Notes: generated by a model from the sequence alone, not told the origin. A stretch of 64,000 bases of DNA from an uncultured Gammaproteobacteria bacterium (GCA_903866355.1 CAIPNE010000714.1:64825-128824); one strand, 5' to 3'. Numbered from the stretch's first letter, positions 17,776-55,713 are shown. Program-made: numbers and translations.

Positions 17776-20120
17776 TACGGCAACCAACCTGGCTCACCGG
17801 GTTGGGGGTCATTGCGTGCCGCGCCGCCGCGCCCTGCGTTAGCCCCCGCAGTACTGGGGCTAAGTGCGACAGTCGCAGGAGCAGTCGCCCTGCCGCTCTG
17901 GTCAATGGTGACCGTCAATGTTCCGTAGACGGGAGCGACGGAGAAGTTATTGGCTCCCCCGCCGAAGCCACCGCCGAAGCCGCTCTTGCCGCCGTCACCG
18001 ATTTGGGCCAGCGTCATACCTGCACTCTTGTCGTCTTTAGGACGCAGCTTGAGCTTGCCCGACGTTATGTCCTTTAGCTGCTGCTCATTGCTGATGTCCA
18101 GCTTGCCCCACTTCCCGCCCGATCCGACCTCAATCCCGCTGCCGCCATATTGCTGGATAAGATTTTCCAGCGCGGCAGAGCGCTCGTCGCTCTGGCTGTA
18201 GGCCGCAGAGTCGGAGGCAATCTTTGTCTTATCCCAGTTCCACTCTTCTCCAGGCGTCTTGCCGAAGATGTTGCTTCCAAGGTCGCTCAGGAATGCACCG
18301 GCAGTCTGAATCTGTCCTGAAATAAAGCCGCCGATCTTTTGTCCGGTCCCTCTGGGCTTTGCCCTCGCCGCCTCTTTCTGGGCCTGTTCGTTCTTGGCCT
18401 TGCCTTGAGCAACGGCGTTGGGGTTGGCGATAACTTCTGATAGGAACTTTTCAACCATCGTTCGGTTGCGCCAGTCCATGTCGGGGAACATCTCCATGAG
18501 CCATTGCTGAAATGCCGTGACAGCCCTGCCCTTGTTGCCGCCGGAACTCTGGACAAAGCGCTGTGCCCAATAGCGGATGATGTTGTAGGTGGCCTGAGTC
18601 TGCCCTTCACCCATAGACTCCATGGCCGTGTAGGGGTCAGTTCCCGGCGGCAGCTTCACTCCACTCATTTGCGGGTTGAGCATCATGCCACCAAGAGGGC
18701 TGCCCATGCTCGTCGCTGACTGGACTAGCTGCGGCATCTTGTCCACAAGATCCGATATACCGTTGAAGGTGAAGGCGGCTGCTCCAGCCTCCTGGCTGGC
18801 AGATCTGCCGGGGACACCGGCATTTATCAAGGATGCGGATGTGTTGGCGTAGTTCGCTTCTAACTGAGGCAGGCTGGCGTAGCCCGTTTTTGATCCTTCC
18901 TTCAGTCCCCCCAAAGCGCCTGCAAGCCCTTCTTGAGTCATGCCACCCTCCACAACATTCTTCTTAAACAGACTCATGGATTCGGCCACCGACATATTCA
19001 TGTCTTTGAGGTTGTTCGCCATAAACTGAGTGACAGTATCGAACTCTTTGCCGGTGAAGCCGGAACTGAGGCCGGATGACACGATCTGTCGCGCCTGGTC
19101 GGTCGTAATGAACGGGTTGAGGGCCATAGAGCGGATTGACATTTCATAGCCCAACCCCTCTTGCAGGCCACCGCCACGGACTTGCCCCATAGAGCGGTAA
19201 TTCTGTACCGCCTGCCCGCCCTCTTGAAACAGGTAATTGCCACCGGCCAGCAAGCCGACTCCAGTGGCAGCGGCACCTAATCCTGTTCCGGCAAAGGCTG
19301 CCAAAGCGCCCAGTCCGCGAGACGCCAGACCGGCTTGACCGCCAGCCATAGGAACAGACGCAGATCCCTCTGAAAGTGCCGGAATGGCGGCTCCAGATGC
19401 CCGTGCCAGCCCACTGAGGCTGTTCATGCCTCTTTGCGCGAAGCCCATCGCGTCCCCGCCGGGAGCAAGTTCGCCAAGAAGTTGGGCTGCGCCGGAAGTC
19501 ATACCGGAAATCCGGCGCTGCATCGGGGAGTACGGGTCACTCATCTGGCTGGCGACATTCTGATCGTTCTGGGCCTTGTCGCGGGCATTATGGCGCTGAG
19601 CGTGCTGCGCTAGATCGTTGTCGCTGGGGGAGTGCGCCGGAACGTCTCCAGTACGGACGTTGCCCCAGTTGCTCTGCATGTTGAAGTACTGGCGCGGATC
19701 TTGAGACGCCATATTCCCCAGGAAGGCGCTGGTGTCATTGATCGTCGGTGCCCGGTTGGCCCCTCCCGCCCCGCTGCCGCCGCCCATTCCGGACAGAGGA
19801 TCGACCCGGCCTTGCGGGAAGCCCCGGCTGACCTGAGTGCCCTGGCCGGTCATTACGGCCTGCTGGGTATCCGTCATCCGCTGGAGCGTATTGACAAGGT
19901 TGGTCTGTGCTTCGTTGGCCTGGTTGGTCAGGGCCGTCATCTGCTGGAGATACTTGAGGAAGTCGGACCCCGTCCGATTGGCAGCTTCGGTCGAGGTACG
20001 GAAATTGTTGAGCGATTCAGTCAGTTCTTTCAGGCTGGAGACGCCCGAATTGTCGATGTCAAAACTGACCCGTGCGGCAACGTAATCCGACCCGGCCTCA
20101 AAGCCACCAGCTTGCGTCAT
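17775..20120 (-). CDS. Tail tape-measure protein
   Basis: 781 aa, and the largest gene between the chaperones and the baseplate. It has a coiled-coil-like N-terminus, Gly/Ala-rich middle segments and a glycine-rich C-terminus. It is ATGA-coupled to the frameshift-extension ORF. Confidence 0.6.
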   Translation of the reverse strand: MTQAGGFEAGSDYVAARVSFDIDNSGVSSLKELTESLNNFRTSTEAANRTGSDFLKYLQQMTALTNQANEAQTNLVNTLQRMTDTQQAVMTGQGTQVSRGFPQGRVDPLSGMGGGSGAGGANRAPTINDTSAFLGNMASQDPRQYFNMQSNWGNVRTGDVPAHSPSDNDLAQHAQRHNARDKAQNDQNVASQMSDPYSPMQRRISGMTSGAAQLLGELAPGGDAMGFAQRGMNSLSGLARASGAAIPALSEGSASVPMAGGQAGLASRGLGALAAFAGTGLGAAATGVGLLAGGNYLFQEGGQAVQNYRSMGQVRGGGLQEGLGYEMSIRSMALNPFITTDQARQIVSSGLSSGFTGKEFDTVTQFMANNLKDMNMSVAESMSLFKKNVVEGGMTQEGLAGALGGLKEGSKTGYASLPQLEANYANTSASLINAGVPGRSASQEAGAAAFTFNGISDLVDKMPQLVQSATSMGSPLGGMMLNPQMSGVKLPPGTDPYTAMESMGEGQTQATYNIIRYWAQRFVQSSGGNKGRAVTAFQQWLMEMFPDMDWRNRTMVEKFLSEVIANPNAVAQGKAKNEQAQKEAARAKPRGTGQKIGGFISGQIQTAGAFLSDLGSNIFGKTPGEEWNWDKTKIASDSAAYSQSDERSAALENLIQQYGGSGIEVGSGGKWGKLDISNEQQLKDITSGKLKLRPKDDKSAGMTLAQIGDGGKSGFGGGFGGGANNFSVAPVYGTLTVTIDQSGRATAPATVALSPSTAGANAGRGGAARNDPQPGEPGWLP

Positions 20121-22149: not shown

Positions 22150-23727
22150 TTAGAGCGTTGACTGCAAGGTGTTGGAAGAGCCGCCAAAGTCATTGACGGT
22201 CGGGGTGGCCGGGGCGGTAATCGCTCCGACCTGGCTGTTCGACGTGAAGTTCGGGTTATTCGGGTTGTTACCCTGAGCCGTCACACTGCCCGAAGTCAGG
22301 CTGACGGCGAACGTCACGACGATGTAGTTCAACGGCATGGCCGGGAGCCAGCTAAAGCTGACTTCGATCACGTCGGGGTTGGTCAGAAGCTGACGGGCCT
22401 TCAGACCGGAGTAGTTGACGAGCAGGCCGTCGCGCAGCAGCGACTGGAGAGCGGCTTCTGCCGACGCCTTGACGTTGACCAGCGTGTAGTCGTAGATCGG
22501 CTGGCCGATGAGGTTGGCGTTCTCCAGGTAGTCGCGCAGCCGGTAAACCAGAGCGTCCTGCTGGCCGATGATGTTCCACTCACGGTGCAGCAGGTCGGAG
22601 GGGTCGGTGGTGACACCGTGACGAACCCACATCTTCTGGCGGCGGGTCTTTTCGATGACCATGAGTCCGTTCTTGGACTCATCGTTCTTTTCCTGCTCCT
22701 TCTGAAGATCCACCACGCCTTCCCAGCCGGTGATGACCTTGTGGGTCAGCGGCTGGGCGTAAGACATCGACACGGTCATTCCGGCCAGGGAGGCAGCGAG
22801 GTACTGTCCACCCAGTTCGATGGATTTGTTCAGTTCAGGGCTGTAGTAGGTGAACTTCGTCGGGCTGACCAGGGCAATCCGCTGCTCACCGATCTGGTTG
22901 GCGTAGGTGCGGCGCTGATCCGACGAAATGGAGCCGTCCATCCCGATAATGGCGCGGCGCTCAAACCTGTTGGCCGACTGAGTAACCACATGCTGACGAA
23001 CCTGCTCGTTCAAAGGCTGCATGCCTCCGTTGCAGGGGACAACAAGAGCGACCAGGGCCTGGTCATTCAGCTTCTCCAGGGCGGCGACGTACTCAGCCAC
23101 CACTGGGGACTCCGGATCATCGGGCTGCACGGCTACACAGACAACTTGGTATGCGCCGTTCATAAACGCGAACTTCGCAGCCAGAGTCAATTCCGACAGC
23201 ACGCCGCCGGGGGCGACTCCGTTGACCGTCTCGCTAGTCAGGTTGAACGGTTCGCCGTAAGCGGTACGAACATCGTCGTAGTCGTAGAAGACGAAGGGGT
23301 TGAAGTAGTCGGGGTCGGTGTAGCGGTAGCTCACCGTGACGGTGTCACCCGACAGGATGGTGCCGCCGTCGATCACCCGGCTGACCGCATACAGAGCTTC
23401 GGAAGTGCCTTGCGTGCCGCCGACGAGGACTACAGTGTAGTCCTGGTTCTCATCGAACACAGCCCCGGTGTAGGGGTTGGTGACCACCAGGGTGGTCAGG
23501 TCGATGCCCTTCTGGGCGAGGGTGCGCGACACTGCCGGAACGGTCAGTTGCTGGTCGGCCTCAACGTAGATTGACTCAGTGAACTTCCGGTAGCCAATCG
23601 TGGTGCCGAAAAGGGCCACCGCCGTGGGCAGCGTAGAGTTCACCACCAACTGAGGACCGGGCATCGGGTTGGTGTAGACACCAGGCGGCAAGTACCGACT
23701 GAAGTCTACCGCCGAAGTCTGGGTCAT
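22150..23727 (-). CDS. Contractile tail sheath protein
   Basis: 525 aa. The N-terminus MTQTSAVDFSRYLPPGVYTNPMPGP matches the sheath PGVY-type start. AGGAGG precedes the ATG, and the gene is followed by the tube gene. Confidence 0.7.
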   Translation of the reverse strand: MTQTSAVDFSRYLPPGVYTNPMPGPQLVVNSTLPTAVALFGTTIGYRKFTESIYVEADQQLTVPAVSRTLAQKGIDLTTLVVTNPYTGAVFDENQDYTVVLVGGTQGTSEALYAVSRVIDGGTILSGDTVTVSYRYTDPDYFNPFVFYDYDDVRTAYGEPFNLTSETVNGVAPGGVLSELTLAAKFAFMNGAYQVVCVAVQPDDPESPVVAEYVAALEKLNDQALVALVVPCNGGMQPLNEQVRQHVVTQSANRFERRAIIGMDGSISSDQRRTYANQIGEQRIALVSPTKFTYYSPELNKSIELGGQYLAASLAGMTVSMSYAQPLTHKVITGWEGVVDLQKEQEKNDESKNGLMVIEKTRRQKMWVRHGVTTDPSDLLHREWNIIGQQDALVYRLRDYLENANLIGQPIYDYTLVNVKASAEAALQSLLRDGLLVNYSGLKARQLLTNPDVIEVSFSWLPAMPLNYIVVTFAVSLTSGSVTAQGNNPNNPNFTSNSQVGAITAPATPTVNDFGGSSNTLQSTL

Positions 23728-42629: not shown

Positions 42630-43631
42630 CTACGCCTTGCGGAGGATAACTATGCCTCTCGGGTTTAGGATAGCTAGGCCAACGAGTTCGTCCATAACCC
42701 AGCCTTTGTGGAACTGTTCCACGTTATTGTTCTCTTCCACGTCGAGCGAGTACATGACGGGGAACACGCCCAAGAAGGACGGCTCCGGAGTCAGGTAGGT
42801 CGTACCCGGCGGGATGATGACGGACTTGCCGATCTGGAACTCACCGAACTGCACGATGCGCTCGCCAGCAACGACAGAGTCTTTGAACGCCCACCCTGTC
42901 GTATTGATGTCCCACCTGTAAAAATCCCGATATTCTGCGGGATTGCAGAGCAGGCGAGACGAATCCAGCAAACGCTGATCGGTGAAGGTGACCGCCGTGT
43001 AGAGGTCATCCGGCGACAGGTAGTTGCCTGCAACCTGGATTTCATTCGGCAGCGAGCCGGTACCGGGGACGGACGAGGAATCGACCAGACGATACTGTGC
43101 TGCGGCGACCTCCAGCAAAGTAATCAGGCGGCTATCTTCCTGCCGCATGATCGCCTGTTTCGTCATATCCTGGGCGTACTCAACCACGTTTGACCTCAGG
43201 TAATAGAGGTCTTCCTTCTTGATCTTCGGGAAGGCGGCGATGCGGAACAAGCTAACTGGCACACGTTTGCCCTCGAAGGGTGTGATTTTGACCTCACCCT
43301 CGTCGCCGTGGAGTAGGTAAGCCTGTCCTAAGTCGTCCAGAACGTCGTACTCAATGGGCACGCCGGGGGTCAGCGTGTCCTCCAGCAGGACGTTACGCAG
43401 GATGCCCTGGTAACGAAGCTGAAGCTGGATGGGGCCGATCATGGACTGGCCCAAGCGGACCATTCCGTTCTGGCGATCACCCAGGATGTTGGCGAGCTTG
43501 GACTGCTTCTCGCGGGCACTGAGCTTGCGACCACCCAGACGTGTCATCACGTTCTGGATATCAGCCACATACTCATCAGAGTGACGGGCAAGCCGACCGA
43601 AGCCGGAACCCGTAGCTACTGGGAGACTCAT
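42630..43631 (-). CDS. Major capsid protein (HK97-fold type, inferred)
   Basis: 333 aa. GGGAGGA precedes the ATG. A strong hairpin follows the gene. It lies downstream of the portal-protease block. A spine-helix-like segment FPKIKKEDLYYLRSNVVEYAQDMTKQAIMRQEDSRLITLL is present. Confidence 0.5.
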   Translation of the reverse strand: MSLPVATGSGFGRLARHSDEYVADIQNVMTRLGGRKLSAREKQSKLANILGDRQNGMVRLGQSMIGPIQLQLRYQGILRNVLLEDTLTPGVPIEYDVLDDLGQAYLLHGDEGEVKITPFEGKRVPVSLFRIAAFPKIKKEDLYYLRSNVVEYAQDMTKQAIMRQEDSRLITLLEVAAAQYRLVDSSSVPGTGSLPNEIQVAGNYLSPDDLYTAVTFTDQRLLDSSRLLCNPAEYRDFYRWDINTTGWAFKDSVVAGERIVQFGEFQIGKSVIIPPGTTYLTPEPSFLGVFPVMYSLDVEENNNVEQFHKGWVMDELVGLAILNPRGIVILRKA

Positions 43632-43646
43632 TTTTCTATTCCTCCC

Positions 43647-44174
43647 TTAGCTTCCGGCACCAAGGGTGACTGCACCCAGGTTGAAGCGGTTCAGACGGAT
43701 CAGGATTTTGTCGGTCGTCTCGACATCCAGAAGCTCCGCAATGGCGTTGGCGTTGGTAGCGCCGACCGGAGTGAGCTTGCCCTGAGCATTGCCGGTCAGC
43801 AGTTGCTGACCGCCGTTGGTCGGAGCGGTCCACGTTGCGGTGGTGTCGAAGGCCGGGGCCAGGATCTCAAACACAGCGTCGGAGTCACCGACCCAGACGG
43901 TGAAGAGGTTGGTCCCGGTTGCGGTGACCTCGTCAATGCCCAGGTTGGGCGCGACGAACAGAGCGGACAGACCAAAGGGCTTCTGGCCTGCTGCTCCAGT
44001 GAAGGGCGTGAAGATTTCGGCACTCTTGCGAGCCATGACCGTGCCGGGAAGAATGTCGAAGGACTTCGTCCAGGCCGGGTCGAGGAAACCACCCCACGTC
44101 GTAGCTTGATGCTGCGCGTAGATCGGTCGGATCGTACGCTTCTGCGACGGGTTGGTGATAGTTGCGCGGAACAT
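43647..44174 (-). CDS. Head decoration- or scaffold-position protein (beta-rich, hypothetical)
   Basis: 175 aa with a strong RBS GAAAGGAGG. It lies immediately upstream of the capsid gene. Confidence 0.4.
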   Translation of the reverse strand: MFRATITNPSQKRTIRPIYAQHQATTWGGFLDPAWTKSFDILPGTVMARKSAEIFTPFTGAAGQKPFGLSALFVAPNLGIDEVTATGTNLFTVWVGDSDAVFEILAPAFDTTATWTAPTNGGQQLLTGNAQGKLTPVGATNANAIAELLDVETTDKILIRLNRFNLGAVTLGAGS

Positions 44175-44205: not shown

Positions 44206-47200
44206 TTATTTGAAGAAGAGCAGTGAGTCACTGCTGGGATCATTGGCTGCAATCCGGTTGGTCTGGGCGGTGCGCTGACCACTTCCCAGTCCGCGAGGAA
44301 TGCTGGTCCCGCGAGAAACAGCAGCGGAACGCTGACGGTTGGCCGCAGAGCGGTCAACATCGTTCTTGGCTTCAAGAAGCCGGGTACGGTCCACCACAGT
44401 GGCGTGCCGCATGGTCTGGAACCGGGCGATCAGCTTCCACTTCTCGCTGGACGGAGCCAGACCGGCGTTGATGTATGCCTCAGCGCAACGAACCGCCGCG
44501 ACTGCATCAGCCGTCCGATTGGACGTTTTCTCGCCGCCGCCGGGTGCCCAGAACTGTGAATCCGTGCTGAGGTCGGGATCGGCAAGATTGTCACCGGCAT
44601 TGCTGCCGTAGTCAGACAAGTCGTACTGGCTTGCCTGAGCGTCGGCGTCGGTGACATCTTTGACGGGAGCTTCCACGTCGGCGCGTGCCATAGGCGCTGC
44701 GGTTTCCAGCGACTCATTGGCTTTGCGATTCATGGTGGCCTCCCTTGTGGTTTCAGCCTTTCTGGCCTCAACCAGAACCTTTTCCAGGGTGGGGAACAGA
44801 TTGCCCAGCGGAACTCCGGTGGCGCGGATGTAGCGAGCGGCCTCACGCCGGATGAAGTTGGCGTTGCCATGCTGGCGAGCCGTCTTTCCGGTCGAGCGAG
44901 CGAGCCAGTCATCGAAGGCGGCGAAAGCATGAATGCTCGCATCCTTCGGCTGAGTGGCGACGTTGTCCAGAGCGATGGAGTCGAAGTCGTCGCCCTTCAG
45001 GGACTGATCGTCGGTACCCGACAGGTCGGGGTTGACGGTCGTCGGCTCCACGATGTTGTCGCCTGCGAGGAAGCGCCGGAAACCCTGCTGCGTCGGACGC
45101 ACACCGGCTTGGCGGCACAGCGAGGCGTACTTGTTGGCGGCGGCGTGCTGAGGACCAGAAGGAGCAGTCGGCTCTCCGACCGTCACATCAATCGGGCCGA
45201 ATGTGCTGCCTCCGGTGTAGGGGTTGACAGCATCCGGACCAGCGGTGTCGAGGCTATGCTCGCCAGCCACCTTCTTCTGACGCAGACGAGCCAGTGCGGC
45301 AGCATCACGCCGAAGCTGATCGGTCCCACGCTGAACGCGGGCGACGAGAGTGTTCTCCGTGTTGGAAATGGAGTCACCGACAGTCGGGTTCACCAGTGCC
45401 TCTTCGGCAGGGGTCTGGCTCAGGAAGATCTCTTCCTGCGCACCCTGGTCATTGCGACCGTAGGGGCCACCATCGACGTGACCACTTTCGTCGGCATGCA
45501 GACGGCGACCACGGGATGCGACCTTCCCGCGTTCGGACAGGTTAATTCCCATGGAACGTCCTTTCTGTATCCTTCGTTCTTTCTTTTGCGAAGCGGTGTT
45601 TCTCACAGGGCGCTTCTTCCCTTTGGACGGTCGAGTCCAAAAGTTTTCTGTCGTACCTTGAATGAAATAGTCGATGCTGCCGGGGTCAGAGGGATCGCAG
45701 CCGTTCTTTTTGCAGAACTCCACATATGCCTGCTGGTCATCTTTGGCCGTGCGATAACGAGCTTCGATTTGGGGCGGCACGCTGGACGGATTGACCGGCT
45801 GCTCTTCCTCTTCGTACTCTTCTTCCGGTTCACCTTCGGCGTAGGGCTGGCTTTCTGCACCCATGTCGCCACCCATCGACGGATCAACAGGACCGCCGCC
45901 GTACAGTTCCGACTCTGCATAGGCCAGATCGCCTTGTGCCTGGTTGAGCAGAGCGAGTTCCTGCTCCGGTCCCATTTGACCCAGGTTGGGGTCCAGTGCA
46001 GGCTGGCCCATCGACGGATCGCCGCCCATCATCGACGGATCAACAGGAGCGCTGCCCATGTCCTCCGCGTAGCGATATCGGGGCATTTTTCTTCCTCCTT
46101 TGCGGGTCGGGATGCCGACCTCTTCAACATCCTCAACCCGCCGGTCGGCGTCGAGGCCCGCATCTTCCTGGGCACGGTCTAGCCGCTTAGCCTGGTCGAA
46201 GTCAGGGGTGCTTAACTCTTCGGGAGAATCCACATAGTGGTGGAAGTCGTCGCTTCCGTCGTCCTCCGACTGCTCGCGCAGAGTGTCAATATCTTCGGGA
46301 GCTTCAGTTTCCCCCCAGGCATAGCGGCGATTCGCGGCACGCATGATGTTGTTTCCTCCCGGCTGATACCAGATATGAACGTGATCCATGTGGTCTTGGG
46401 TTGCGTTTCCGGTATTACCGGCGCTGTAGGGGCTTGGATCGGCTCCATTCCCGTAGCCGTAAACTTGGTTATTCCAGATCAACCCATGCACATTAGGATC
46501 TTGAAGAGCCTGTTGCAGAACTCTGTCACCCGACTCAATATCGGGCACCATCACGTCGAGGGCACCGTTTTGATGCTCGCCATACTGGTCTGCTTCATGG
46601 TCACCGACAGTGAACCCTTGGTTTTCCCAGTGCGGCATCATCGAATGGGCAAAGTCTCTAGCGCTGCCGTCTCCGGTAACTCCACCACCGCTGCTGCTGC
46701 TACCGCCTCCACCGCCGCTAGTCCCGCCTCCACTGGACGATCCACCACCACCACCACCAGGATTGACCCAGCCTTCGCCGGGGGTGAGGTTGTACTGCGT
46801 CGGGGCTGACGGCATTCCTGTCATGTCACCCGGCGTCAGATCCTTCATGGTGGACATGGTCTTGTTTTCGTCTTCTTCATAAGCGGCTGCATACCGCCGC
46901 AAAGCATGGCGCTTAGCCATGTCGTAGCCTTGCTCGTACCGACCGCGAACGAAGTCTGCTTCTTGAGAGTTAAGGCCCTTTAATGCATCGGCCACATCGG
47001 GGTTTTCGTCGGCAGTATCCGAATCACCCCGGTCGTATGCTTGCCGACCGATATCTGACCAATCAACTTCAGAAGCACGATTAGCCGTCAGGAACTCAGG
47101 CTGAACCCGCAGGAACTCACGGAGCTTGCGCAGCCTCTTGTCCCTCTCCAGGTCGTCCAAGATCCTGTCAGGAATACTGCGCCGGTTCTTCTTCTTCTCC

Positions 47201-48162
47201 AGCCGCTTCTTCTCTTTAGCGTCGGCTAAAGCAAGCTCTTCGCGGGTGGGGATGTAGGACTGCTTCTTGTTCCACGCCAACGTCTTGAAGGCTTGCGGGT
47301 CGGAGCTTCCCGTTGTGCTGTTCTTGTCTTCGATGAAGGTGCCGGAAACGGGTTCGGTCGCCATGGTAAAGGCCCGCGCCGGATTCATTCCCCCACCAGC
47401 GATGCCACTGTCCAATGGCTGCGGCTGGAAGTCGCCGTATCCGGCATCAAACCCGCCGCCCCTCATGGGGTCGATGGTGTCGGGGTCGATGTCGCCAATT
47501 TGCTCGCCGTGGCGACGATTAGCCACCACGACACGGCTGACCACAGCAGTTTCGTCAGCAGGATCGAACACATAGCTGAGTTCAAAGAAACCCAGCTTGA
47601 AACAGTTCTCGTAAACCAGCGTTGGCTCTCCGGTTTTGGCGTGCCGCAGCGTCTCACCTTTGTGATGCTTAACGTGGTCGCACATATCGGAGATATCGGT
47701 GGCTTTATTGTCGCAAACAGAACACTTCGTGAACCCGGCTTCGACGCCCATAGAGACGGAGTCCATGCCGCCTTCATGGATTTCCTTAGCGAGCTTGGGG
47801 AAGCGAACAGCGTCGATTTCCTGAATGACCTCGACGTATTTGTCATTACCGGCTTCGCGGTACCTAGCGGCAACCACCCGGCCACGGGCCTTTTCTGGAT
47901 CAAAGTTCTGGTGATTGACGAACACCGGCTTGCCCAGGAATGTGCGGAAAGACTTCTTCAGTTCCTCGCTGGGCCACGCATCGTAGTTCTGATTGATCCG
48001 CGCACTGATCGCCCGCACCTGGGTGTAGATCATCCCCGGCTGCATCTTGAAGTCGTCAATGACGGCGGCGTAGCGCCCTGTATAGGACGCCACAAGCTGC
48101 CGCACGCCATTATCGGTCAGACCGCGTGAGGCCGCAGCGCTGTACCGCATAGTCGCCGTCAC
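44206..48162 (-). CDS. 1318-aa protein consisting of an N-terminal HK97-type prohead serine-protease-like domain (Peptidase_S78-like) fused to an extension of more than 1,000 aa
   Basis: The N-terminal 220 aa read ...GKPVFVNHQNFDPEKARGRVV... (the His motif) and ...GGMDSVSMGVEAGF... (the Ser motif). A GTG start follows GGAGGG. The extension is acidic and Gly/Ser-rich, with one compact histidine-rich segment ...GLIWNNQVYGYGNG...DHMDHVHIW... Confidence 0.55.
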   Translation of the reverse strand: MTATMRYSAAASRGLTDNGVRQLVASYTGRYAAVIDDFKMQPGMIYTQVRAISARINQNYDAWPSEELKKSFRTFLGKPVFVNHQNFDPEKARGRVVAARYREAGNDKYVEVIQEIDAVRFPKLAKEIHEGGMDSVSMGVEAGFTKCSVCDNKATDISDMCDHVKHHKGETLRHAKTGEPTLVYENCFKLGFFELSYVFDPADETAVVSRVVVANRRHGEQIGDIDPDTIDPMRGGGFDAGYGDFQPQPLDSGIAGGGMNPARAFTMATEPVSGTFIEDKNSTTGSSDPQAFKTLAWNKKQSYIPTREELALADAKEKKRLEKKKNRRSIPDRILDDLERDKRLRKLREFLRVQPEFLTANRASEVDWSDIGRQAYDRGDSDTADENPDVADALKGLNSQEADFVRGRYEQGYDMAKRHALRRYAAAYEEDENKTMSTMKDLTPGDMTGMPSAPTQYNLTPGEGWVNPGGGGGGSSSGGGTSGGGGGSSSSGGGVTGDGSARDFAHSMMPHWENQGFTVGDHEADQYGEHQNGALDVMVPDIESGDRVLQQALQDPNVHGLIWNNQVYGYGNGADPSPYSAGNTGNATQDHMDHVHIWYQPGGNNIMRAANRRYAWGETEAPEDIDTLREQSEDDGSDDFHHYVDSPEELSTPDFDQAKRLDRAQEDAGLDADRRVEDVEEVGIPTRKGGRKMPRYRYAEDMGSAPVDPSMMGGDPSMGQPALDPNLGQMGPEQELALLNQAQGDLAYAESELYGGGPVDPSMGGDMGAESQPYAEGEPEEEYEEEEQPVNPSSVPPQIEARYRTAKDDQQAYVEFCKKNGCDPSDPGSIDYFIQGTTENFWTRPSKGKKRPVRNTASQKKERRIQKGRSMGINLSERGKVASRGRRLHADESGHVDGGPYGRNDQGAQEEIFLSQTPAEEALVNPTVGDSISNTENTLVARVQRGTDQLRRDAAALARLRQKKVAGEHSLDTAGPDAVNPYTGGSTFGPIDVTVGEPTAPSGPQHAAANKYASLCRQAGVRPTQQGFRRFLAGDNIVEPTTVNPDLSGTDDQSLKGDDFDSIALDNVATQPKDASIHAFAAFDDWLARSTGKTARQHGNANFIRREAARYIRATGVPLGNLFPTLEKVLVEARKAETTREATMNRKANESLETAAPMARADVEAPVKDVTDADAQASQYDLSDYGSNAGDNLADPDLSTDSQFWAPGGGEKTSNRTADAVAAVRCAEAYINAGLAPSSEKWKLIARFQTMRHATVVDRTRLLEAKNDVDRSAANRQRSAAVSRGTSIPRGLGSGQRTAQTNRIAANDPSSDSLLFFK

Positions 48163-48165
48163 CGA

Positions 48166-51100
48166 CTAGCCCTCCAGGTAGTGGGTTCCCCGAAGGTCAA
48201 GACCGGGGAGATTGCGGGCACCCTGCGGGTGCGCTTCGTCCATCAACTCTTGCTGCTCAGCCAGCGAGTAAACCCGGCCAGCCGTACGCAGGAAGCCTTG
48301 TGCAGCGTTGGCTATAGCGTCGTCGCTATAACCGCCGCCAGATATGGCACCGCCGCCTAAGGCTGTGTTGCCGATGTTGGCCTGGAACTGACGGACGATG
48401 TCGGAGCCGTCGTCGTAAGCCGCCTGCTTGGGCTGAACCTTGTAGTTGATGAGGTCGCTTTCCGGCTCATCCAACAGGTCGATGTAGTCGTGGTGGTTGT
48501 CCCACTCTTCGCTGGTGGAGAACCAGTCCTTACGAGACGGACCACTGCCTGCAAACGCGGGATCAACAGCACTGGAGTCATCGTTGAAGTTGCTGAGTTG
48601 GGAATCATCACCGTCTGCTACGACGCCTGCGGTAAGCAGGCCAGAAATACCGTTGCCGATAGCAGATCCGATGCCGGATGCAATGGGACCAAGGGTTTGG
48701 GTAACCATCGGTAGGACAGCACCGCCGACATCCTGCAAAATCGGCATTACATTGTTGAGAAAGAAGTCGCCGTCTAGTCCGCTACCCACTCCGCTAGTGG
48801 AATTGGCATTCTGCGGAAGATCTTCTTCCAGCTTCTTGCCGCCGTCAGACTGAACCGGCTGCTGCGGCTGACTCCGGTTGTTGAAGTTGTCCGTCGTGAT
48901 CTGAGGAAGAGGATCTACCCCACTAGACGGTGGGCCGGTAGGGGCCTGCTGCTGTGGCTGCTGAACAGGAACGGCTGGCTGCTGAGCGGCAGGCTGCTGC
49001 GGTTCGCCCGCCCCACTCAAGGCACCCAGATCTTCGTCTTCGTCGGCAAAAAAGTGACGGCTACCCTGGAATTGAGTCAGGCCAGGATTGCCAAGGGGTT
49101 GCCCTCCAGTGCCGGGTATCGCCGTATTCTCAAGGCCCGCCGAAGGCGTCGGGGGCATAGAGAAGCTGGTGCTGTTCGGCGGGCCAGGATCGGGGGCGTA
49201 GTCAGAAATCCCGTCAGCCGGGGCTGGGCCAGGGGCTGGAGGAACGCCTGGAGTTCCCGACGTAGGTGCAGAGCCACCAGGCTCAACCGGAGGCGGCTGG
49301 GTTCCTGTGTCGGGCGAATCAGCCGTTGCCGCCGGGGCACCGGGGATCTTCAGGGTGTCGTCGGCAAAGATCAAATCTTTGTTGGTGATCTGAGAGTTGC
49401 CACCCATCAGATCGTCAATGCCCACACCAGAACGCTCACTGATGCTGGTCAAGGTGTCACCGGACTGAATCTTGTAGTCACCGGCCCCAATGGCATCTTT
49501 GTTGCCGTTGGGGGACCAGTCGGAGCCACCGCCGCCACCACCGGCTGCGCCACCGCCACCAGTGCCAACGGGGGTTTCAGTCGCCGTGTTCTTGACCTCC
49601 GGACTACCACCGCCTAAATCCTTAAAAGCATCAGGATCAGAGCTTCCGGTTGGTGACGATGGAGCGTCTGGAGCGTCCTTGGGCTTGTTGTTGTAGTCGC
49701 CAGATCCTGTGGGGTTTAGCCGCGTAGGGGCGTCATCGTTATAGAACGGGTTCCGAAGGTCAAAGTTCTCCGTAAGAAAACCGTTGCCATTGTCGCGCTC
49801 AAAAGGGGAGCGGGTGCTTTGGCCTATCCAGTCGAAAAGATCACCTACAGGATCGGGCTTCTCTGCGGTGCGCCGCATAGCGACGAACAGGCTGGCGTCG
49901 TAGCCACGATCACGAAGCTCGCTGACGATTTCGGAGACTTCATGGTTACGCTCAGCCATATTCCCGAAGTTCTCAGCCGCCGGTTCAGCGCTGAGGTCGC
50001 GGAGTTTTTTTAGTAGATTCTCGTCAGCGGTGTAGGTCAGAGCTTCCTTGCGCATGCTGAAGCGGACGATGGGGGTGTCCTCGTCGTCCAGCTTGCCGTG
50101 GTTCTTGGCCCAGGACTTATCGACCTTGGCAGCTTTCTCCTGCCACGCATCGGTCCACCCTGGCCGCTTGTTCCCCTGAGCCTGATCCTTCATCACCTGT
50201 GCCCAGATTTTTGCGGTCATAGGGTCTTCAGGGTCGATGCCGTGGTGGTCGGCCCACTCCAGAAACTGGTTGGTGGCGACACCGGCTGTGATCTGATCCG
50301 GCCCGGTGGTCTTGCGCTCGTCCTTCTCCACGTCGATGGAGGTCGGATCTGCCGGATCGGGGATGCGGTACAGATCCGGCGACAGCCGGTCGGGCTTCCC
50401 TTGTGAACGCAGCGTGGGGTTGTCGTGGCCGTTGCCACCCTCCCAGACCTCATTGGGGTCGAAGGTGTAGCCGTCTACGTCGTAGTTACGCTGCGGACGC
50501 TCCGTGAAGTTGTCGTAGATGTAGTCGTAGACCTTTTTTGCATCTTCGGACGTAGGTTCGTCGTCAAGCTGAGACATGAAGGCGTCGGCTGACGGAAGAT
50601 CCACCACGCCCATGTTCACGTCACTCACCCAGGACTTGTAGTCCTCCAGCACACTGCCGCCGCGAGAGAGGAATCGGTCGTACGCCGATTCGGGGAGCAT
50701 TTCCCCCCGTGCAGAAGCACCAGGCTTGGGGAGCGAGGCCCAATAGCTCTCTGCATTCGGGAACTCGCTTTGTGCCGCTTCCGGCTTCGCGTTGATTTCC
50801 TGCTGGTACCAGTCCTTGGCCTTCGGGTGATCCGGCGCAATGTTATGGACTCGCAGGAACGTCTCGTACGGCAGCTTGCCGTCTGGACCCAGAAGGTGTT
50901 CGTCGTAGGCCAGCTTCTGCGAATGCCGGGACCGCGAACTGGGGCTGACCACAGGCAAGCTGCGGCGCGGCTTATTCTTCTTCGGCAGCTTCTGCTGGCG
51001 GGGCCTGCCGGTCTGGTGGGCCGACTGCATGGTGAAGTACGCGGCAAGGCCGTGGCTGCACAGACGGCCAACGAAGGTCTTCTTGCGCCGGAATGCCCAC

Positions 51101-52623
51101 TTACCCCACTCGCAGCCGCAATGCCATTGGTCGATGGAGTTCGACCCGGTCAAGCTGGCACCCTTGAAGATGACCACGTCGTAAGTGCCGTTGTCACCGA
51201 CCACCGACGCCATGATCCTGTTGGGGGCCATGTCCTTGACCGTTACCGCGCCGGAAGTCTTGAGGCGCATCGCTTTGGTCCGCACATCCGACCACGCCGC
51301 CTCGCGGATCATCGGATCGGCTTCCACCAGATCCATGTACTGGCCGACGCGAGGGTCCAGGCCGGTAGCCGACTCAATGATGTAGGCGGTGCGCTGGATG
51401 AAGGTGACCGGATCGGTGCGGAACTGATTCAACGGATCATTGGCAGCAGCCCGGTGAATCGGCAGGTCGATGTACTTATCGCTCAAACCGGCAGGGCGCT
51501 CTACAGAAGAGTGCCTCCTATTCGGGGAGTGGCACCACTCGCAATGCTCTTCGCCGTCATCTTCACCGAAGTCGCAGCCGTGTGTGTAGCAGCCTTCGTC
51601 AAGGAAGGCTTGGTCATCGTCACTACCTGCCGTGACGTAGATCGGCTCGTAGTTGTGCAGTGCCCGGTCGAAGAGTTCTTCGTCTCCGACATGCTTCTTG
51701 ACATACTCTTCGTAGCGCTTCTGCTCGCGGGGGTCGTCAAACTTCGGGGCGGGATGGGCAGCCAGCCAGTCCTCATCGTCCCAGACCTCTACCTCGTTGG
51801 GCAGAAGCATTTCCGGCTCCGGAGCTTTGCGGTGCTTGCCGGGATAGGCGGTGTGAATGCTAGCTCCGCGCTGGTTGAACTTGTCCAGCAGGCCGTAGCC
51901 GTCTACGCCGTGGGTTTTCCCGTACAGATTGGCGGTGGCATCCTGGTCAGGCTGAAGGCCAGCCTGCTGTGCCCACTGAACGTAGTGATTCATTGAGCCG
52001 GGGCGGGCGGTGCGGAGGCTGCCCTCGCGGAACGGAATTGCTTGGTGCATAGCCGGGATCGGATCGCCGTACTCATCAACGTGGCCCCATGTGCCGTCCG
52101 ACTCTTGAGTCAACTGCTCGCCGCACTCCTCGCAGCCAGATTCTGCCGACTCCCGGCTGCTGGTGGCGAACAGATGCGGGGCGGGGCCGGGGTAGGGGCC
52201 ACCCTCTTCGCTCTCGCCGGTCACAGAGTTAGTCGGCGTCATCCGCTCTTCCAGATCTACGTCGTGATCCGGAGTGATGGTCTGATCTTCTTCGTACATC
52301 TCAGTCGGGTGCTGAGGCTCGTAGTCGTAAGGCAGGGTGGTGGACATCGACTCGTCCACGTCGCCTAGAGCGCCAGCGCGAGTTCGGGTCAGCCAGGTTT
52401 TGCGGGTGTCTTCCGGCTGCTCCAGAAGCTCCTGACGGTACCCCTCATAGTCAGGCTCTTCACCCTCGCTGGAGTCCTCACTGGCTGCAATCTTCGTCTC
52501 GTCAATCCAGACGGAAAAGCCCTGACCGGCAACCTTGTACTGGGTACGGCCTCGCGTCGTCTCCGTATCGGTGACGGTACCGGGGCCGTGGGCAGTATGG
52601 ACGGCGCTGCCGATTTTAAGCAT
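48166..52623 (-). CDS. 1485-aa head-module protein with several Cys clusters, a SWIM-type zinc-finger motif (CxCx(n)CxH), a LysM domain and a long Pro/Gln-rich region
   Basis: AGGAGG precedes the ATG. The zinc-finger segment is ...DQWHCGCEWGKWAFRRKKTFVGRLCSHGLAAYF... The LysM-like segment is ...DYKIQSGDTLTSISERSGVGIDDLMGGNSQITNKDLIFADDTLKIPG... Another cluster reads CYTHGCDFGEDDGEEHCEWCH. Confidence 0.6.
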   Translation of the reverse strand: MLKIGSAVHTAHGPGTVTDTETTRGRTQYKVAGQGFSVWIDETKIAASEDSSEGEEPDYEGYRQELLEQPEDTRKTWLTRTRAGALGDVDESMSTTLPYDYEPQHPTEMYEEDQTITPDHDVDLEERMTPTNSVTGESEEGGPYPGPAPHLFATSSRESAESGCEECGEQLTQESDGTWGHVDEYGDPIPAMHQAIPFREGSLRTARPGSMNHYVQWAQQAGLQPDQDATANLYGKTHGVDGYGLLDKFNQRGASIHTAYPGKHRKAPEPEMLLPNEVEVWDDEDWLAAHPAPKFDDPREQKRYEEYVKKHVGDEELFDRALHNYEPIYVTAGSDDDQAFLDEGCYTHGCDFGEDDGEEHCEWCHSPNRRHSSVERPAGLSDKYIDLPIHRAAANDPLNQFRTDPVTFIQRTAYIIESATGLDPRVGQYMDLVEADPMIREAAWSDVRTKAMRLKTSGAVTVKDMAPNRIMASVVGDNGTYDVVIFKGASLTGSNSIDQWHCGCEWGKWAFRRKKTFVGRLCSHGLAAYFTMQSAHQTGRPRQQKLPKKNKPRRSLPVVSPSSRSRHSQKLAYDEHLLGPDGKLPYETFLRVHNIAPDHPKAKDWYQQEINAKPEAAQSEFPNAESYWASLPKPGASARGEMLPESAYDRFLSRGGSVLEDYKSWVSDVNMGVVDLPSADAFMSQLDDEPTSEDAKKVYDYIYDNFTERPQRNYDVDGYTFDPNEVWEGGNGHDNPTLRSQGKPDRLSPDLYRIPDPADPTSIDVEKDERKTTGPDQITAGVATNQFLEWADHHGIDPEDPMTAKIWAQVMKDQAQGNKRPGWTDAWQEKAAKVDKSWAKNHGKLDDEDTPIVRFSMRKEALTYTADENLLKKLRDLSAEPAAENFGNMAERNHEVSEIVSELRDRGYDASLFVAMRRTAEKPDPVGDLFDWIGQSTRSPFERDNGNGFLTENFDLRNPFYNDDAPTRLNPTGSGDYNNKPKDAPDAPSSPTGSSDPDAFKDLGGGSPEVKNTATETPVGTGGGGAAGGGGGGSDWSPNGNKDAIGAGDYKIQSGDTLTSISERSGVGIDDLMGGNSQITNKDLIFADDTLKIPGAPAATADSPDTGTQPPPVEPGGSAPTSGTPGVPPAPGPAPADGISDYAPDPGPPNSTSFSMPPTPSAGLENTAIPGTGGQPLGNPGLTQFQGSRHFFADEDEDLGALSGAGEPQQPAAQQPAVPVQQPQQQAPTGPPSSGVDPLPQITTDNFNNRSQPQQPVQSDGGKKLEEDLPQNANSTSGVGSGLDGDFFLNNVMPILQDVGGAVLPMVTQTLGPIASGIGSAIGNGISGLLTAGVVADGDDSQLSNFNDDSSAVDPAFAGSGPSRKDWFSTSEEWDNHHDYIDLLDEPESDLINYKVQPKQAAYDDGSDIVRQFQANIGNTALGGGAISGGGYSDDAIANAAQGFLRTAGRVYSLAEQQELMDEAHPQGARNLPGLDLRGTHYLEG

Positions 52624-53038: not shown

Positions 53039-53314
53039 TTATGGGGCAGTGCAGACTTCATCGCTGTCGATAGGGTAGTTCTTAGTGTCCCGAATGGTGG
53101 TGGTTACAGAGCGGGACACCCAGCCGTAGCAGGACAGGAACTCGTCCTCATCGAAACCGATTTCTTCGGCAGTTTTGCGCAAGACCTGGAGCAGTAACCA
53201 TCGCTGCTGTTCGTCTTGAATGGGGTGCGTCCGGTATTCGTTCCATGCAACGGTTCCGTTGGGCAGGGATAGTCCGTACTCCGTACGGGCAGATATCACG
53301 TCGTCGTCACTCAC
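53039..53314 (-). CDS. Small acidic hypothetical protein
   Basis: 91 aa. It is ATGA-coupled to the portal gene. Confidence 0.4.
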   Translation of the reverse strand: MSDDDVISARTEYGLSLPNGTVAWNEYRTHPIQDEQQRWLLLQVLRKTAEEIGFDEDEFLSCYGWVSRSVTTTIRDTKNYPIDSDEVCTAP

Positions 53315-55713
53315 CAGCGGGGCCTCACTCCGGTTGCTTCCTCGTACTGCTCAACTAGCTCTTGCAGCAGCTTGCGGGATTCGGGTGCCCCGCCAGCCTG
53401 GATTTCCGGCCAGTCAGCACGAATCTGCGACTCGTAGCCAGCCATGCCGGTGATTGCATATGCTTCCGGATCTTCCACGATGTCACCAACCGACACGCCG
53501 CTAGCTCGCCGCCGGATCGCCTTTTCCACCCGCTTGGCGTCGGCAGTGCGAGCCTTACCGTAAGAGGACGGACCCTTTTCAAACTTTGTCAACGGTCGGT
53601 TGGTTCGCAAGGTAGACACCTTGGCACCCTTGGGCATGGCCCCTCGCTGCTCGTCAGACTCCACCGGACGCTGCCGGTTACGAGGAAGCTCAGTTACCGT
53701 TTCGGAAGCGTCCTCGACGCCGCCTGGGCCGCTGGACTTCGGGCCTTCTCCGTGTGGTCCGGTAGCCGCAGCTTTCTGTTGACCGCCCTCTTCTTCCGGC
53801 GGCGGTGGGGAGACGCCGGGGAGCAGACCCATCTGACCGGCAGGCGACATCTGCTTGATCTGCTGCTCCTGCATTTCGGCCTGACCTTCGACCATTTCGG
53901 TCTGGGCCAGCCCCTGACGCAATTGCAGTGTGGCTGACAGTGCTGCCACCAGATCGTCGGGGTACGGGATGCCTTGGGAGTCGCAAAGCGTTTGCAGCTT
54001 CGCCATAGCCTGCGCCTTCGCCAGACCTTTGGAGACAGTCTCTTCGGCCTGCATTTCCAGTTCCCGGCTGAACTCAATCGGAATGTTGACGGCCAGAGTG
54101 CCGTCCGACACCGGCACGCCCATCGACTTGAGTTGGGCGATGAACTGCCTTTCCTGAGCTTCGTCGCGCAGGTTGAGGGTAGCGAACTTAATTTCGGGCA
54201 GCAGCAGCTTGGGCACGCGGACGATTTCTTCTTCGCCAGTTTCCTCGTTGTACTGAACGATTTCCCGATAGATAGGAACCCTCAGCCCGCCCTTGAGTTC
54301 GTAATCGTAATGCTCCTGGGCTTCCGCGATGACCTCAGCCCGCTTCTGCATATGGCGAAGCACCTTCTTCTGGAAGGTGAGCATCAGTTGCTCGCAGACC
54401 TCGCGGTTCAGTGCGGAAGAGGCGTAAGTTCCACCGGCTCCGGAGCCGCCAGCAATAAGGGCCTGACCGATCCCCCACGCCTGAAGCAGCTTGGCGTCGA
54501 TGCGGTCGTAGTCCTGGTCGAATCGGGGAACAGCCTCCCGGCCAAACACCGACTGGACGTTTACACCAAAGTTGTGTACGAGCAGCTTGAAGTCAGCAGC
54601 CAGCGCGTTCTGCATATCGTCGCGCAAATCATCCAGTTCGCCCTGGTCCGGAATCCAGGGTTCGCCGTCGCCCATATTTTCGATGCCCATTGTCGCCAGG
54701 ATCAGCGGGGCGTAGAGCCTGTCTGCCACCGCATCCTGGGCCGCGTTGAGGCTTTCTTCCATCATCAACGTGCGGAAAGATCGCAGCAGATGAGGGGTTC
54801 CCCGCAGATCCCAGAAAGCAGCTTTGTTGACCAGGCGGGAGACGAGGGCATCGGAGATATCCAGGCCGTCATCCTGGGCAGCAGCCTTGACGATTTCGGG
54901 GTAGTGCTTGACTAGCTGCTGGTACTCCCAGGTGCGCTCCATGCGCTCACTGGGGGTTTCTTCCGACTCGCCGCCGCCGTTAGGTCCGGAGCGCAGATTC
55001 TCCACCAACTCCTTGACCATGAGTTGGACGCGCTCTTCCTGAACGAACAGCGACTTTGAGACGCGGACCATGTCGGGGTTGAGGATTTCTTCACTTGACC
55101 AGATACCCAGCGACTCATTGAAGTGAGCCAAGCTGGTGACCTCACCAACCGTGAAGTATTCCCGCCCCAGACCTTCAGACAGGAACTCTCCGTAGTTCAG
55201 ATCCTGCATGAACATTTGCTCGTAGAACTCTTGGATCTTCTTGTCGGTGGACTGGAACTCCAACCCGACAACCGGAAACTTGCTGTAGATGTCGATGAGC
55301 AGCGGCACCAAGTCGTGGGTCGTGTACCACAACCGGCACCACCGACGAAGCTCAGTTAGCTCTTTCGGATCTTGGACATTAAAGGGGATACCTTTGTCCT
55401 CTAGGCTAGAGAAGGGCTGCCGGATCTTTGGCATCGCCATTTGGACATTGGAGGCGGTTCGGGTCATTCCGGTAGTTGATCCCCGCACACTCGACATCTT
55501 CTGTCGGCGCATCTGTGCAGCCAACGCCTTGTTGGTGGAGTCGGTTACAGAGCCACGGGTGGCCGTATCTGCCACCTTCTTGGCTTCAATCCGTGCCTGG
55601 ACAGGAGAGTTAGGAAGGGTGTATCCGGCTTGGCGCAGCCTGCGCATTTCCGTTTCGGGATTGCCGACGTAAAAGTTCGATGACCGCCGGTCAGAGAAGG
55701 AGAAGTCACTCAT
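53311..55713 (-). CDS. Portal protein (large, with an acidic C-terminus; inferred from position and size)
   Basis: 800 aa. It is the first large gene of the portal-protease-capsid series. The C-terminal third is Glu/Gln-rich. No Walker motif is present, so it is not the terminase. Confidence 0.5.
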   Translation of the reverse strand: MSDFSFSDRRSSNFYVGNPETEMRRLRQAGYTLPNSPVQARIEAKKVADTATRGSVTDSTNKALAAQMRRQKMSSVRGSTTGMTRTASNVQMAMPKIRQPFSSLEDKGIPFNVQDPKELTELRRWCRLWYTTHDLVPLLIDIYSKFPVVGLEFQSTDKKIQEFYEQMFMQDLNYGEFLSEGLGREYFTVGEVTSLAHFNESLGIWSSEEILNPDMVRVSKSLFVQEERVQLMVKELVENLRSGPNGGGESEETPSERMERTWEYQQLVKHYPEIVKAAAQDDGLDISDALVSRLVNKAAFWDLRGTPHLLRSFRTLMMEESLNAAQDAVADRLYAPLILATMGIENMGDGEPWIPDQGELDDLRDDMQNALAADFKLLVHNFGVNVQSVFGREAVPRFDQDYDRIDAKLLQAWGIGQALIAGGSGAGGTYASSALNREVCEQLMLTFQKKVLRHMQKRAEVIAEAQEHYDYELKGGLRVPIYREIVQYNEETGEEEIVRVPKLLLPEIKFATLNLRDEAQERQFIAQLKSMGVPVSDGTLAVNIPIEFSRELEMQAEETVSKGLAKAQAMAKLQTLCDSQGIPYPDDLVAALSATLQLRQGLAQTEMVEGQAEMQEQQIKQMSPAGQMGLLPGVSPPPPEEEGGQQKAAATGPHGEGPKSSGPGGVEDASETVTELPRNRQRPVESDEQRGAMPKGAKVSTLRTNRPLTKFEKGPSSYGKARTADAKRVEKAIRRRASGVSVGDIVEDPEAYAITGMAGYESQIRADWPEIQAGGAPESRKLLQELVEQYEEATGVRPRW

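Follow-up and report, generated by a model that had tools for sequence, protein, structure and literature searches.

The window considered here is a stretch of 64,000 nucleotides from a contig ascribed to an uncultured Gammaproteobacteria bacterium (GCA_903866355.1, CAIPNE010000714.1:64825-128824), whose large open reading frames (ORFs) all lie on the minus strand and together make up the structural module of a myovirus. The element in question is an ORF at 44206-48162, in which a sequence-only reading had seen a prohead protease fused to an extension of more than 1,000 residues. The length of 1318 amino acids and the coordinates given then stand, while the strand has to be the minus one: translation of the plus strand meets many stops and the minus-strand frame is uninterrupted. 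With somewhat more confidence than doubt we argue, from sequence, that the ORF serves head maturation in a new myovirus, a relative of the Cluster C mycobacteriophages, and is a gene in which a protease and a scaffold would be nested, with a slot for an enzyme cargo. From the N- to the C-terminus, its parts are protease, linker, MT3 peptidase, block B, an acidic variable region and block C, and the principal features are the following.

44206-48162, minus strand: full-length ORF, 1318 amino acids, 143.6 kDa (phrog_2774, E 2e-242)
48171-48175, minus strand: Shine-Dalgarno (SD) sequence of the full-length product, GGAGG (anti-SD pairing energy -9.8)
47518-48105, minus strand: prohead protease domain, residues ~20-215
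47911-47913 and 47752-47754, minus strand: catalytic residues His84 and Ser137
47674-47724, minus strand: zinc-knuckle-like insert in the protease domain, C147-x2-C150...C161-x-H163
46612-47517, minus strand: variable linker with charged helices and a Gly/Ser run, residues 216-517, common to <10% of relatives
46363-46611, minus strand: MT3/VldE-type LAS zinc peptidase domain, residues 518-600
46093-46332, minus strand: block B, a conserved acidic segment (YAWGETEAPEDIDTLRE...RRVEDVE), residues 611-690, in ~100 of 119 relatives

The frame opens with GTG at 48162, the GGAGG lying 8 nt before it, and one public gene call takes the alternative start Met5 (1314 amino acids). That the ORF might really be two genes was a misgiving of the sequence-only reading itself, and an assembly or sequencing error joining two or more genes could be argued from the separate genes that occupy this slot in some distant relatives. 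However, 16 metagenomic contigs, the longest of 149.6 kb and independent in origin, carry the identical 1318-residue protein, over 100 homologues have the same two ends within one ORF, and the N- and C-terminal blocks belong to one polypeptide in 117-118 of the 119 best homologues; we reject the artefact as having next to no probability.

Both of the protease motifs quoted earlier do occur, spanning residues 78-88 (KPVFVNHQNFD) and 134-144 (DSVSMGVEAGF), and residues 58-207 match the head maturation proteases of phrog_18299 (E 2.7e-19). Pfam holds no family matching the whole protein at E<=0.01 and none matching residues 1-260 at E<=10, NCBIfam gave no match for the ORF either whole or in pieces, and a profile search of the PDB with the 118-sequence family alignment returned no protease, so that a fold prediction was needed. 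The AlphaFold2 (AF2) model of the protease (pLDDT 79.5) falls within the assemblin-like fold, the next fold scoring <=6.1, and the N-terminus thus does find a protease fold. Annotated jumbo-phage proteases recovered by tblastn at 25-32% identity have H84, S137 and the Cys/His motif in common with it. Among the 118 aligned family members N83, H84, N86, D88, D134, S137, G139 and E141 are invariant; H84 and S137 are likewise invariant in the proteases of Erwinia phage Alexandra and Pseudomonas phage PaBG, and in a statistically weak hhalign alignment to T4 gp21 they fall on the T4 LNH motif and Ser140. Candidates for the third residue of the triad are D162, H163 and D156. Residues ~20-215 form a serine protease of prohead type, of one kind with T4 gp21, the jumbo-phage enzymes and assemblin; the earlier assignment to the HK97 gp4 type was right as to a prohead protease at the N-terminus and wrong as to membership of Peptidase_S78, for which Pfam gives no HMM match at E<=10.

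Proteolytic processing of head proteins by this domain is predicted from its sequence. Its relatives in T4 and the jumbo phages all cleave after the Glu of short A/S/G/L-x-E motifs and also shorten themselves at the C-terminus (PMC5694885), and the family has conserved A-x-E candidate sites at PADE204/T, EAPE623/D and ANE1150/S. The PADE site falls within the protease fold, and stand-alone proteases conserve it too, so that cleavage at the A-x-E sites remains speculation. The CxxC...CxH motif, together with C187, is invariant in the 118 members and in the jumbo-phage proteases of Alexandra and PaBG (L085 2752-3531 and L086 2680-3444), and it looks like a zinc knuckle; we know of no description of a zinc site in a prohead protease. 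Alternatively, H163 could act as the third catalytic residue, by analogy with the Ser-His-His triad of the herpesviruses. Intein or homing-endonuclease Pfam domains are recorded on seven relatives (P0003, P0062, P0068, P0111, P0029, P0070 and P0108), and P0003, the one relative examined, has its intein (residues 148-526) inside the protease domain, where it splits the CxxC at the invariant C147/S148, marking the spot as functionally critical.

Beyond the protease, a Gly/Ser linker spans residues ~467-497 and the His-rich segment, GLIWNNQVYGYGNG...DHMDHVHIW, spans residues ~560-598, both as first described, and the suspicion that the latter belonged to an enzyme was well placed: by sequence and by model, residues 518-600 are an MT3/VldE-type domain, that is, a putative zinc peptidoglycan L,D-endopeptidase. 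Residues 525-597 match PDB entry 9flh (phmmer E 1e-3), and a Foldseek search with the AF2 model of residues 495-1318 gave 9flm (E 1.7e-3, probability 1.0, 29% identity over 94 columns) as well as 9fln, 9flh and 9flk (probability 1.0), all four entries being the C-terminal MT3 domain of Streptococcus pneumoniae VldE (PMC11667670). The zinc ligands of VldE (Spr1875) are H301, D308 and H375, with H373 included in the HxH motif (PMC11667670); H530, D536, H595 and H597 of the window protein align with VldE and the HxH motif is kept. The Ile-Trp core is likewise retained as L561-I562-W563, the equivalent of TM4 W853, a residue needed for function (PMC1796659). MT3 takes its name from motif 3 of the TM4 tape measure, a peptidoglycan hydrolase that aids infection of stationary-phase cells, and Piuri & Hatfull listed Bxz1 gp95, an orthologue of the 1318-residue protein, among the mt3-bearing proteins (PMC1796659).

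More than 300 homologues of the ORF were found, those listed spanning 801-1735 amino acids, and the size that had seemed unusual is ordinary for a family whose members of 850-1780 amino acids number in the hundreds. BLAST coverage over the best 119 homologues gives the family layout, the family alignment comprising 118 members, as fixed ends around a variable middle.

Residues ~20-220: block A (protease), present in 117/119
Residues 220-610: first variable region, largely unshared among the 119
Residues 700-850: second variable region, acidic, largely unshared among the 119
Residues 860-1318: block C, in 100-118 of 119

What occupies the middle slot differs between relatives: the His-rich domain (~27/119), an SLT domain, an Rpf-like transglycosylase, an isochorismatase or an L5 gp82-like domain. 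PF26571 is recorded, as a precomputed assignment, on homologues, and a literature search for this family found nothing. Distant relatives in IMG/VR consist of the protease domain alone (219 amino acids) or carry other extensions (321-1009 amino acids), and a scan of 1.84 billion representatives with the 448-residue C-terminal part returned 126 relatives, mostly the C-terminal ends of proteins of ~600-1780 amino acids. In a 114-kb phage contig (L054) the module runs portal, a 411-residue core of the LysM-giant family, a 343-residue protease, a separate 448-residue ORF, cement and capsid, and residues 304-417 of the separate ORF resemble window residues 1152-1276 (hhalign probability 80.6%, E 1.3e-5), a remote homology. 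In a second contig (L083) a 219-residue protease is followed by ORFs of 249 and 483 amino acids, the similarity of the 483-residue ORF to block C not being significant (probability 4.9%).

One question then is whether the conserved C-terminal end is also made by itself. Within it and upstream of it lie the following candidate starts and nested frames.

45550-45564, minus strand: internal start 1, AAAGGA (45559-45564) and the ATG of Met871 (45550-45552)
44206-45552, minus strand: nested in-frame ORF 1, equal to block C, 448 amino acids, 47.9 kDa, long helices and disordered linkers
44731-44746, minus strand: internal start 2, AAGGGAGG (44739-44746) and the ATG of Met1144 (44731-44733)
44206-44733, minus strand: nested in-frame ORF 2, 175 amino acids, 18.7 kDa, a scaffold candidate
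46084-46106, minus strand: possible start 3, AAAGGAGG (46094-46101, within 46087-46106) and the ATG of Met693 (46084-46086), giving a product of 626 amino acids

Met871 and Met1144 are in frame with the 3' part of the ORF, with no stop intervening. Residue 871 is Met in 99/118 and Val in 7/118 family members, within a K-G-x-x-M motif set in variable surroundings, and every Val read at the DNA level is encoded by GTG (6 loci). The Gly codon preceding it is GGA in 15/17 distinct loci as against 12% gene-wide, the codon before GGA is AAA in 12/17 loci (AAA making up 16-17% of Lys codons gene-wide), and the resulting gAAAGGA falls 6-10 nt before the ATG or GTG; an SD-like sequence is kept over ~45 distinct loci despite changes of amino acid (aaggagg, gggagga, ccggagg). 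At Met1144 the pairing energy in the window is -11.5 kcal/mol, the gene sites of capsid and cement having -11.4 and -11.9, and the Arg codons adjacent to it are AGG in 15/21 cases versus 7% gene-wide. Energies of <= -7.5 kcal/mol occur at this site in 82% of 39 loci, compared with 9% of 745 control internal ATGs; the two internal sites differ from the controls with p 4.5e-5 and, for Met1144, p 1.6e-17 (Mann-Whitney). In a recoding control, in which the seven upstream codons were changed synonymously by each gene's own codon usage, the SD sequence was stronger than the amino acids require in 37/42 loci at Met871 (p 1.4e-6) and in 23/28 at Met1144 (p 5.5e-6), all of these p-values being upper bounds on significance that overstate independence, because the loci are related to each other, a reservation to be set against the proposal. 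Pairing at Met693 is strong (-11.8), and Met stands there in 72% of the family, less regularly than at Met871 and Met1144. Met607 (46342-46344, GGGAGG, -10.3) is strong in the window; it is not conserved and was rejected as a family feature. We infer that ribosomes also initiate at Met871 and Met1144, and on the same sequence grounds the gene may give more than three products.

The chief alternative at this point is a polyprotein of the P2 gpO type, in which the 1318-residue chain would be the only product, with protease and scaffold in one chain trimmed by autoproteolysis, and the SD-like motifs inside the gene would mark pauses in translation or be left over from a gene fusion. P2 gpO is a known case of protease and scaffold in one chain (HFTV1 preprint summary), the SD sequence of Met871 is of average strength, and relatives with split genes show that fusion events occur, which could leave relic signals. 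Against this, SD sequence and ATG or GTG are kept at synonymous positions over ~40 divergent loci, also where the amino acids change, the Val codon at residue 871 is always GTG in the 6 loci read, and the Met1144 site is as strong as that of the capsid gene. Moreover, the capsid of a ~150-kb genome needs hundreds of scaffolds and few copies of protease or enzyme, a demand that a single product cannot supply; we therefore hold the single-product scheme to be unlikely, while granting it about the largest share of what the nested gene does not claim. Short stand-alone hits (175-189 and 415-439 amino acids) were considered as separate scaffold genes and rejected, those inspected coming from truncated, gapped or chimeric contigs. 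Gene callers picked the Met871 or Met1144 start in most of these; as the contigs are defective, the hits are consistent with internal starts and add no independent evidence for them.

On the minus strand the genes run portal, two small ORFs, a 1485-residue LysM protein, the 1318-residue ORF, cement and major capsid protein, so that the location first claimed, in the protease and scaffold slot of a head module between the portal and capsid genes, holds.

53311-55713, minus strand: portal protein (phrog_2833, E 0)
48166-52623, minus strand: 1485-residue LysM protein, upstream of the 1318-residue ORF, candidate second internal or ejection protein
43647-44174, minus strand: cement (decoration) protein, directly downstream of the 1318-residue ORF (PF23968, E 3.4e-87)
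42630-43631, minus strand: major capsid protein, 333 amino acids (phrog_2522, E 4e-137)
22150-23727: sheath gene, adjoining the tape measure gene
17775-20120: tape measure (phrog_2836, E 4e-94)

The nearest GenBank phages are the Cluster C mycobacteriophages (Bxz1, Cali, Rizal, I3) and Phrappuccino, followed by Gordonia phage Skog and Rhodococcus phage Finch. Amino-acid identity to them is only ~51-55% over conserved segments, and a capsid gene search of the GenBank phage records found none with >80% DNA identity to the window phage, which is therefore a new relative of the Cluster C mycobacteriophages. The synteny of portal, LysM giant, protease gene, cement and capsid is kept in Cali, Phrappuccino, Skog and Finch. 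The GenBank records of well over 200 phages, the much-used group of Bxz1, Cali and I3 among them, name no protease and no scaffold in the head module; the orthologues of the ORF in all four reference phages are labelled 'hypothetical protein', Cali gp93 with the note 'tape measure', and the UniRef name of the Phrappuccino orthologue is 'Capsid maturation protease'.

Taken at face value, the Cali note would make the 1318-residue product a tape measure or other tail protein, and it is indeed a large protein with a motif, mt3, known from siphovirus tape measures and with a match to phrog_6090 (tape measure, E 2.8e-7). That match, however, extends over the MT3 domain only, a prohead protease makes up the N-terminus, the gene belongs to the head module, between those of portal and capsid, and the real tape measure at 17775-20120 stands beside the sheath gene. 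The tail reading is refuted, retaining a vanishing probability at most, and the note on Cali gp93 (L001 8947-12807) is a mis-annotation that arose because of the mt3 motif.

Besides a LysM domain (residues 1050-1094), the neighbouring 1485-residue protein contains a SWIM-like zinc-finger motif of the form CxC...CxH (WHCGCEWGKW...RLCSHG), long linkers rich in Pro and Gly and, near residues 1290-1340, a hydrophobic stretch that resembles a glycine zipper. Its orthologues go under the labels 'LysM domain containing protein' or 'LysM-like endolysin', and it has the appearance of a further internal or ejection protein. A short motif is common to the two giants, YVEFCKKNGCDPSDP in the 1318-residue protein and FLEWADHHGIDPEDP in the LysM protein (BLASTP E 4e-4), as is the pair TGSSDPQAFKTL and TGSSDPDAFKDL, each directly before the Gly-rich linker of its protein, and the C-terminal RIAANDP of the former resembles HRAAANDP of the latter. 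Judged by sequence, these common motifs may be targeting or cleavage signals. Elsewhere, a 945-residue virion protein (phrog_2810, 13352-16189, minus strand) has weaker endolysin and tape-measure-segment matches at residues 317-466 and may carry another wall-degrading domain, in tail or baseplate.

As to the scaffold, residues 871-1318 are a conserved region, mostly helical and disordered. In the AF2 model of residues 495-1318 (pLDDT 61.5) the MT3 domain is folded and the remainder consists of long helices with disordered linkers between them, the confident helical units being residues 1072-1151 and 1220-1282; searched with Foldseek against PDB and BFVD, the model gave only the MT3 matches and one uncharacterised orthologue. 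The 175-residue product combines an acidic disordered N-half (pI 4.05), a basic helical hairpin and a conserved AANDP..D..LF end. Phrog profile searches of the window proteins found no other scaffold gene in the head module, the capsid protein, with 333 amino acids, is too short to contain a scaffolding (delta) domain of its own, and the strong Met1144 site implies a high copy number of the 175-residue product. This product, and maybe the 448-residue one too, is a putative capsid scaffold. The sequence-only view of the extension as cargo is borne out for the slot in the middle and is too narrow for the rest, the C-terminal 448 and 175 residues with their conserved internal SD sequences and ATGs looking like scaffold.

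A competing possibility is that the C-terminal 450 residues serve solely as an ejection (pilot) module anchored to capsid or portal, the scaffold then being the 1485-residue LysM protein or an unrecognised small ORF. The short motifs that the LysM protein has in common with the ORF, including the AANDP like that of its C-terminus, fit such a scheme, as do the cell-wall enzymes of the cargo slot, which are typical of ejection proteins, and a C-terminal part that resembles no known scaffold. The position of the gene directly upstream of the cement and capsid genes, the high copy number implied by the strong internal site, the scaffold-like size and charge pattern of the 175-residue product and the failure to find another candidate scaffold in the head module all speak against it, and we rate it improbable, a little more so than the single-product scheme.

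The nested protease-scaffold gene, which we prefer, would work as follows. Internal initiation would yield the 448-residue product and, from the stronger site, an abundant 175-residue scaffold. The rarer full-length chain, because it has its C-terminus in common with the scaffold, would co-assemble with it inside the procapsid and so carry in the protease and the cell-wall enzyme; lambda gpC/Nu3, HSV-1 UL26/UL26.5 and HFTV1 gp17/17.5 work in this manner. The protease would then cut scaffold and linkers, probably after Glu as in its T4 and jumbo-phage relatives; the scaffold fragments would exit and the enzyme domain would stay in the head. In the least supported step, the enzyme domain may, like T7 gp16, be expelled along with the DNA and help in crossing the thick wall of actinobacteria. 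Among relatives the enzyme would be swapped (SLT, Rpf-like, isochorismatase, L5 gp82-like) and the protease and scaffold ends kept.

Several points weigh against this proposal. We infer internal initiation, the scaffold function, the cleavage sites and the packaging or ejection of the enzyme. Internal SD-like motifs can serve as translational pause sites, the SD sequence of Met871 is of average strength only (-6.0), and Met693, as a possible additional start, complicates the simple picture. The C-terminal part has no similarity detectable by Foldseek in PDB or BFVD to characterised scaffolds. To our knowledge no capsid-borne wall hydrolase has been shown for a myovirus, and the window phage is one. 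In addition, the cleft arginines of VldE, R294 and R363, frame its site and hold the catalytic water (PMC11667670), and in the window copy they are replaced by E523 and T584, most homologues keeping them (GGYR, DRG). With both arginines lost the activity of the window copy is doubtful, although its membership of the fold family holds; judged by these residues, it may be weakly active, inactive or changed in specificity.

The gene family itself, the mt3 motif, the UniProt protease label and the principle of nested protease and scaffold are already on record. New are the demonstration, at the level of fold, of the protease in this lineage, internal starts whose conservation points to the scaffold otherwise missing, and the swappable enzyme slot between the two. 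Protease and scaffold roles are here assigned to one 'hypothetical' gene and a 'tape measure' note is corrected, and the predictions can be tested in Mycobacterium smegmatis with existing phages. The variable slot suggests natural loading of capsids by fusion to scaffold, which bears on the breaching of cell walls and on the engineering of capsids as protein carriers. A bolder and distinctly tentative generalisation, which we would sooner doubt than assert, is that throughout a lineage of large actinobacteriophages (Cluster C, Cluster AA, Skog, Finch and >300 metagenomic relatives) one gene works as a translational ladder, the full-length protein and two to three co-terminal scaffold forms being made in set ratios and scaffold identity loading interchangeable wall enzymes for ejection. 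If true, this would be a natural and evolvable cassette for the encapsidation of cargo and the closest phage counterpart so far of herpesvirus UL26/UL26.5, with the same protease fold.

How, then, does the gene compare with known systems? Closest are its orthologues, Bxz1 gp95, Cali gp93 and Phrappuccino gp53 (Clusters C and AA), Skog gp158 and Finch gp17, which have the protease N-terminus, block B and block C in common with it at segment identities of 35-68%; their cargo region differs from that of the window protein in length and content, the Phrappuccino protein having only 852 amino acids and lacking MT3. The MT3 domain, with its H..D...HxH motif and I-W core, is the one found in the TM4 tape measure, the VldE C-terminus and Mycobacterium tuberculosis Rv0320 and Rv1728c, but here its carrier is a head protein and elsewhere a tail tape measure or a secreted host protein, and the cleft arginines of VldE are absent from the window copy.

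T4 gp21 and its jumbo-phage counterparts (phiKZ gp175, SPN3US gp245, Alexandra gp145 and PaBG gp226) have the same fold and catalytic His and Ser, and the CxxC...CxH motif is common to the window protease and the aligned Alexandra and PaBG proteins; no Pfam or PDB match at the sequence level ties these proteases to the 1318-residue ORF. Whereas they are stand-alone proteins of 210-265 amino acids, with separate scaffold or core proteins and cargo targeted by short propeptides, the window protease is fused and its cargo would be targeted by that fusion. T4 and jumbo-phage heads carry processed internal or ejection proteins. The T4 gene 21 record annotates internal translation initiation leading to a shorter form of the protease, so that internal starts recur in this class of gene.

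T7 gp16 is an internal core protein with a lytic transglycosylase domain, stored in the capsid and ejected at infection, and some relatives of the 1318-residue protein carry an SLT domain in the cargo slot; T7 gp16, however, is fused to neither protease nor scaffold, and T7 is a podovirus. P2 gpO resembles the window protein in having an N-terminal protease and a C-terminal scaffold in a single polypeptide, and differs in being much smaller, with neither an internal start nor a cargo domain. Phage lambda gpC is a protease of a different type, ClpP/S49-like. Precedents for nesting itself are lambda C/Nu3, herpes simplex virus 1 (HSV-1) UL26/UL26.5 and HFTV1 gp17/17.5, the last by recent ribosome profiling (HFTV1 preprint). 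Compared with these and with Mu I/Z, the window gene has ~650 residues and a swappable enzyme between protease and scaffold and, as far as its sequence alone can tell, at least two and possibly three conserved internal starts. The short form in HSV has its own promoter, whereas those of the window gene would come from predicted internal translation starts. If the nested starts are used, phages with the assemblin fold have the gene logic of herpesvirus UL26/UL26.5, which would add to the case for a common ancestry of the two assembly machineries.

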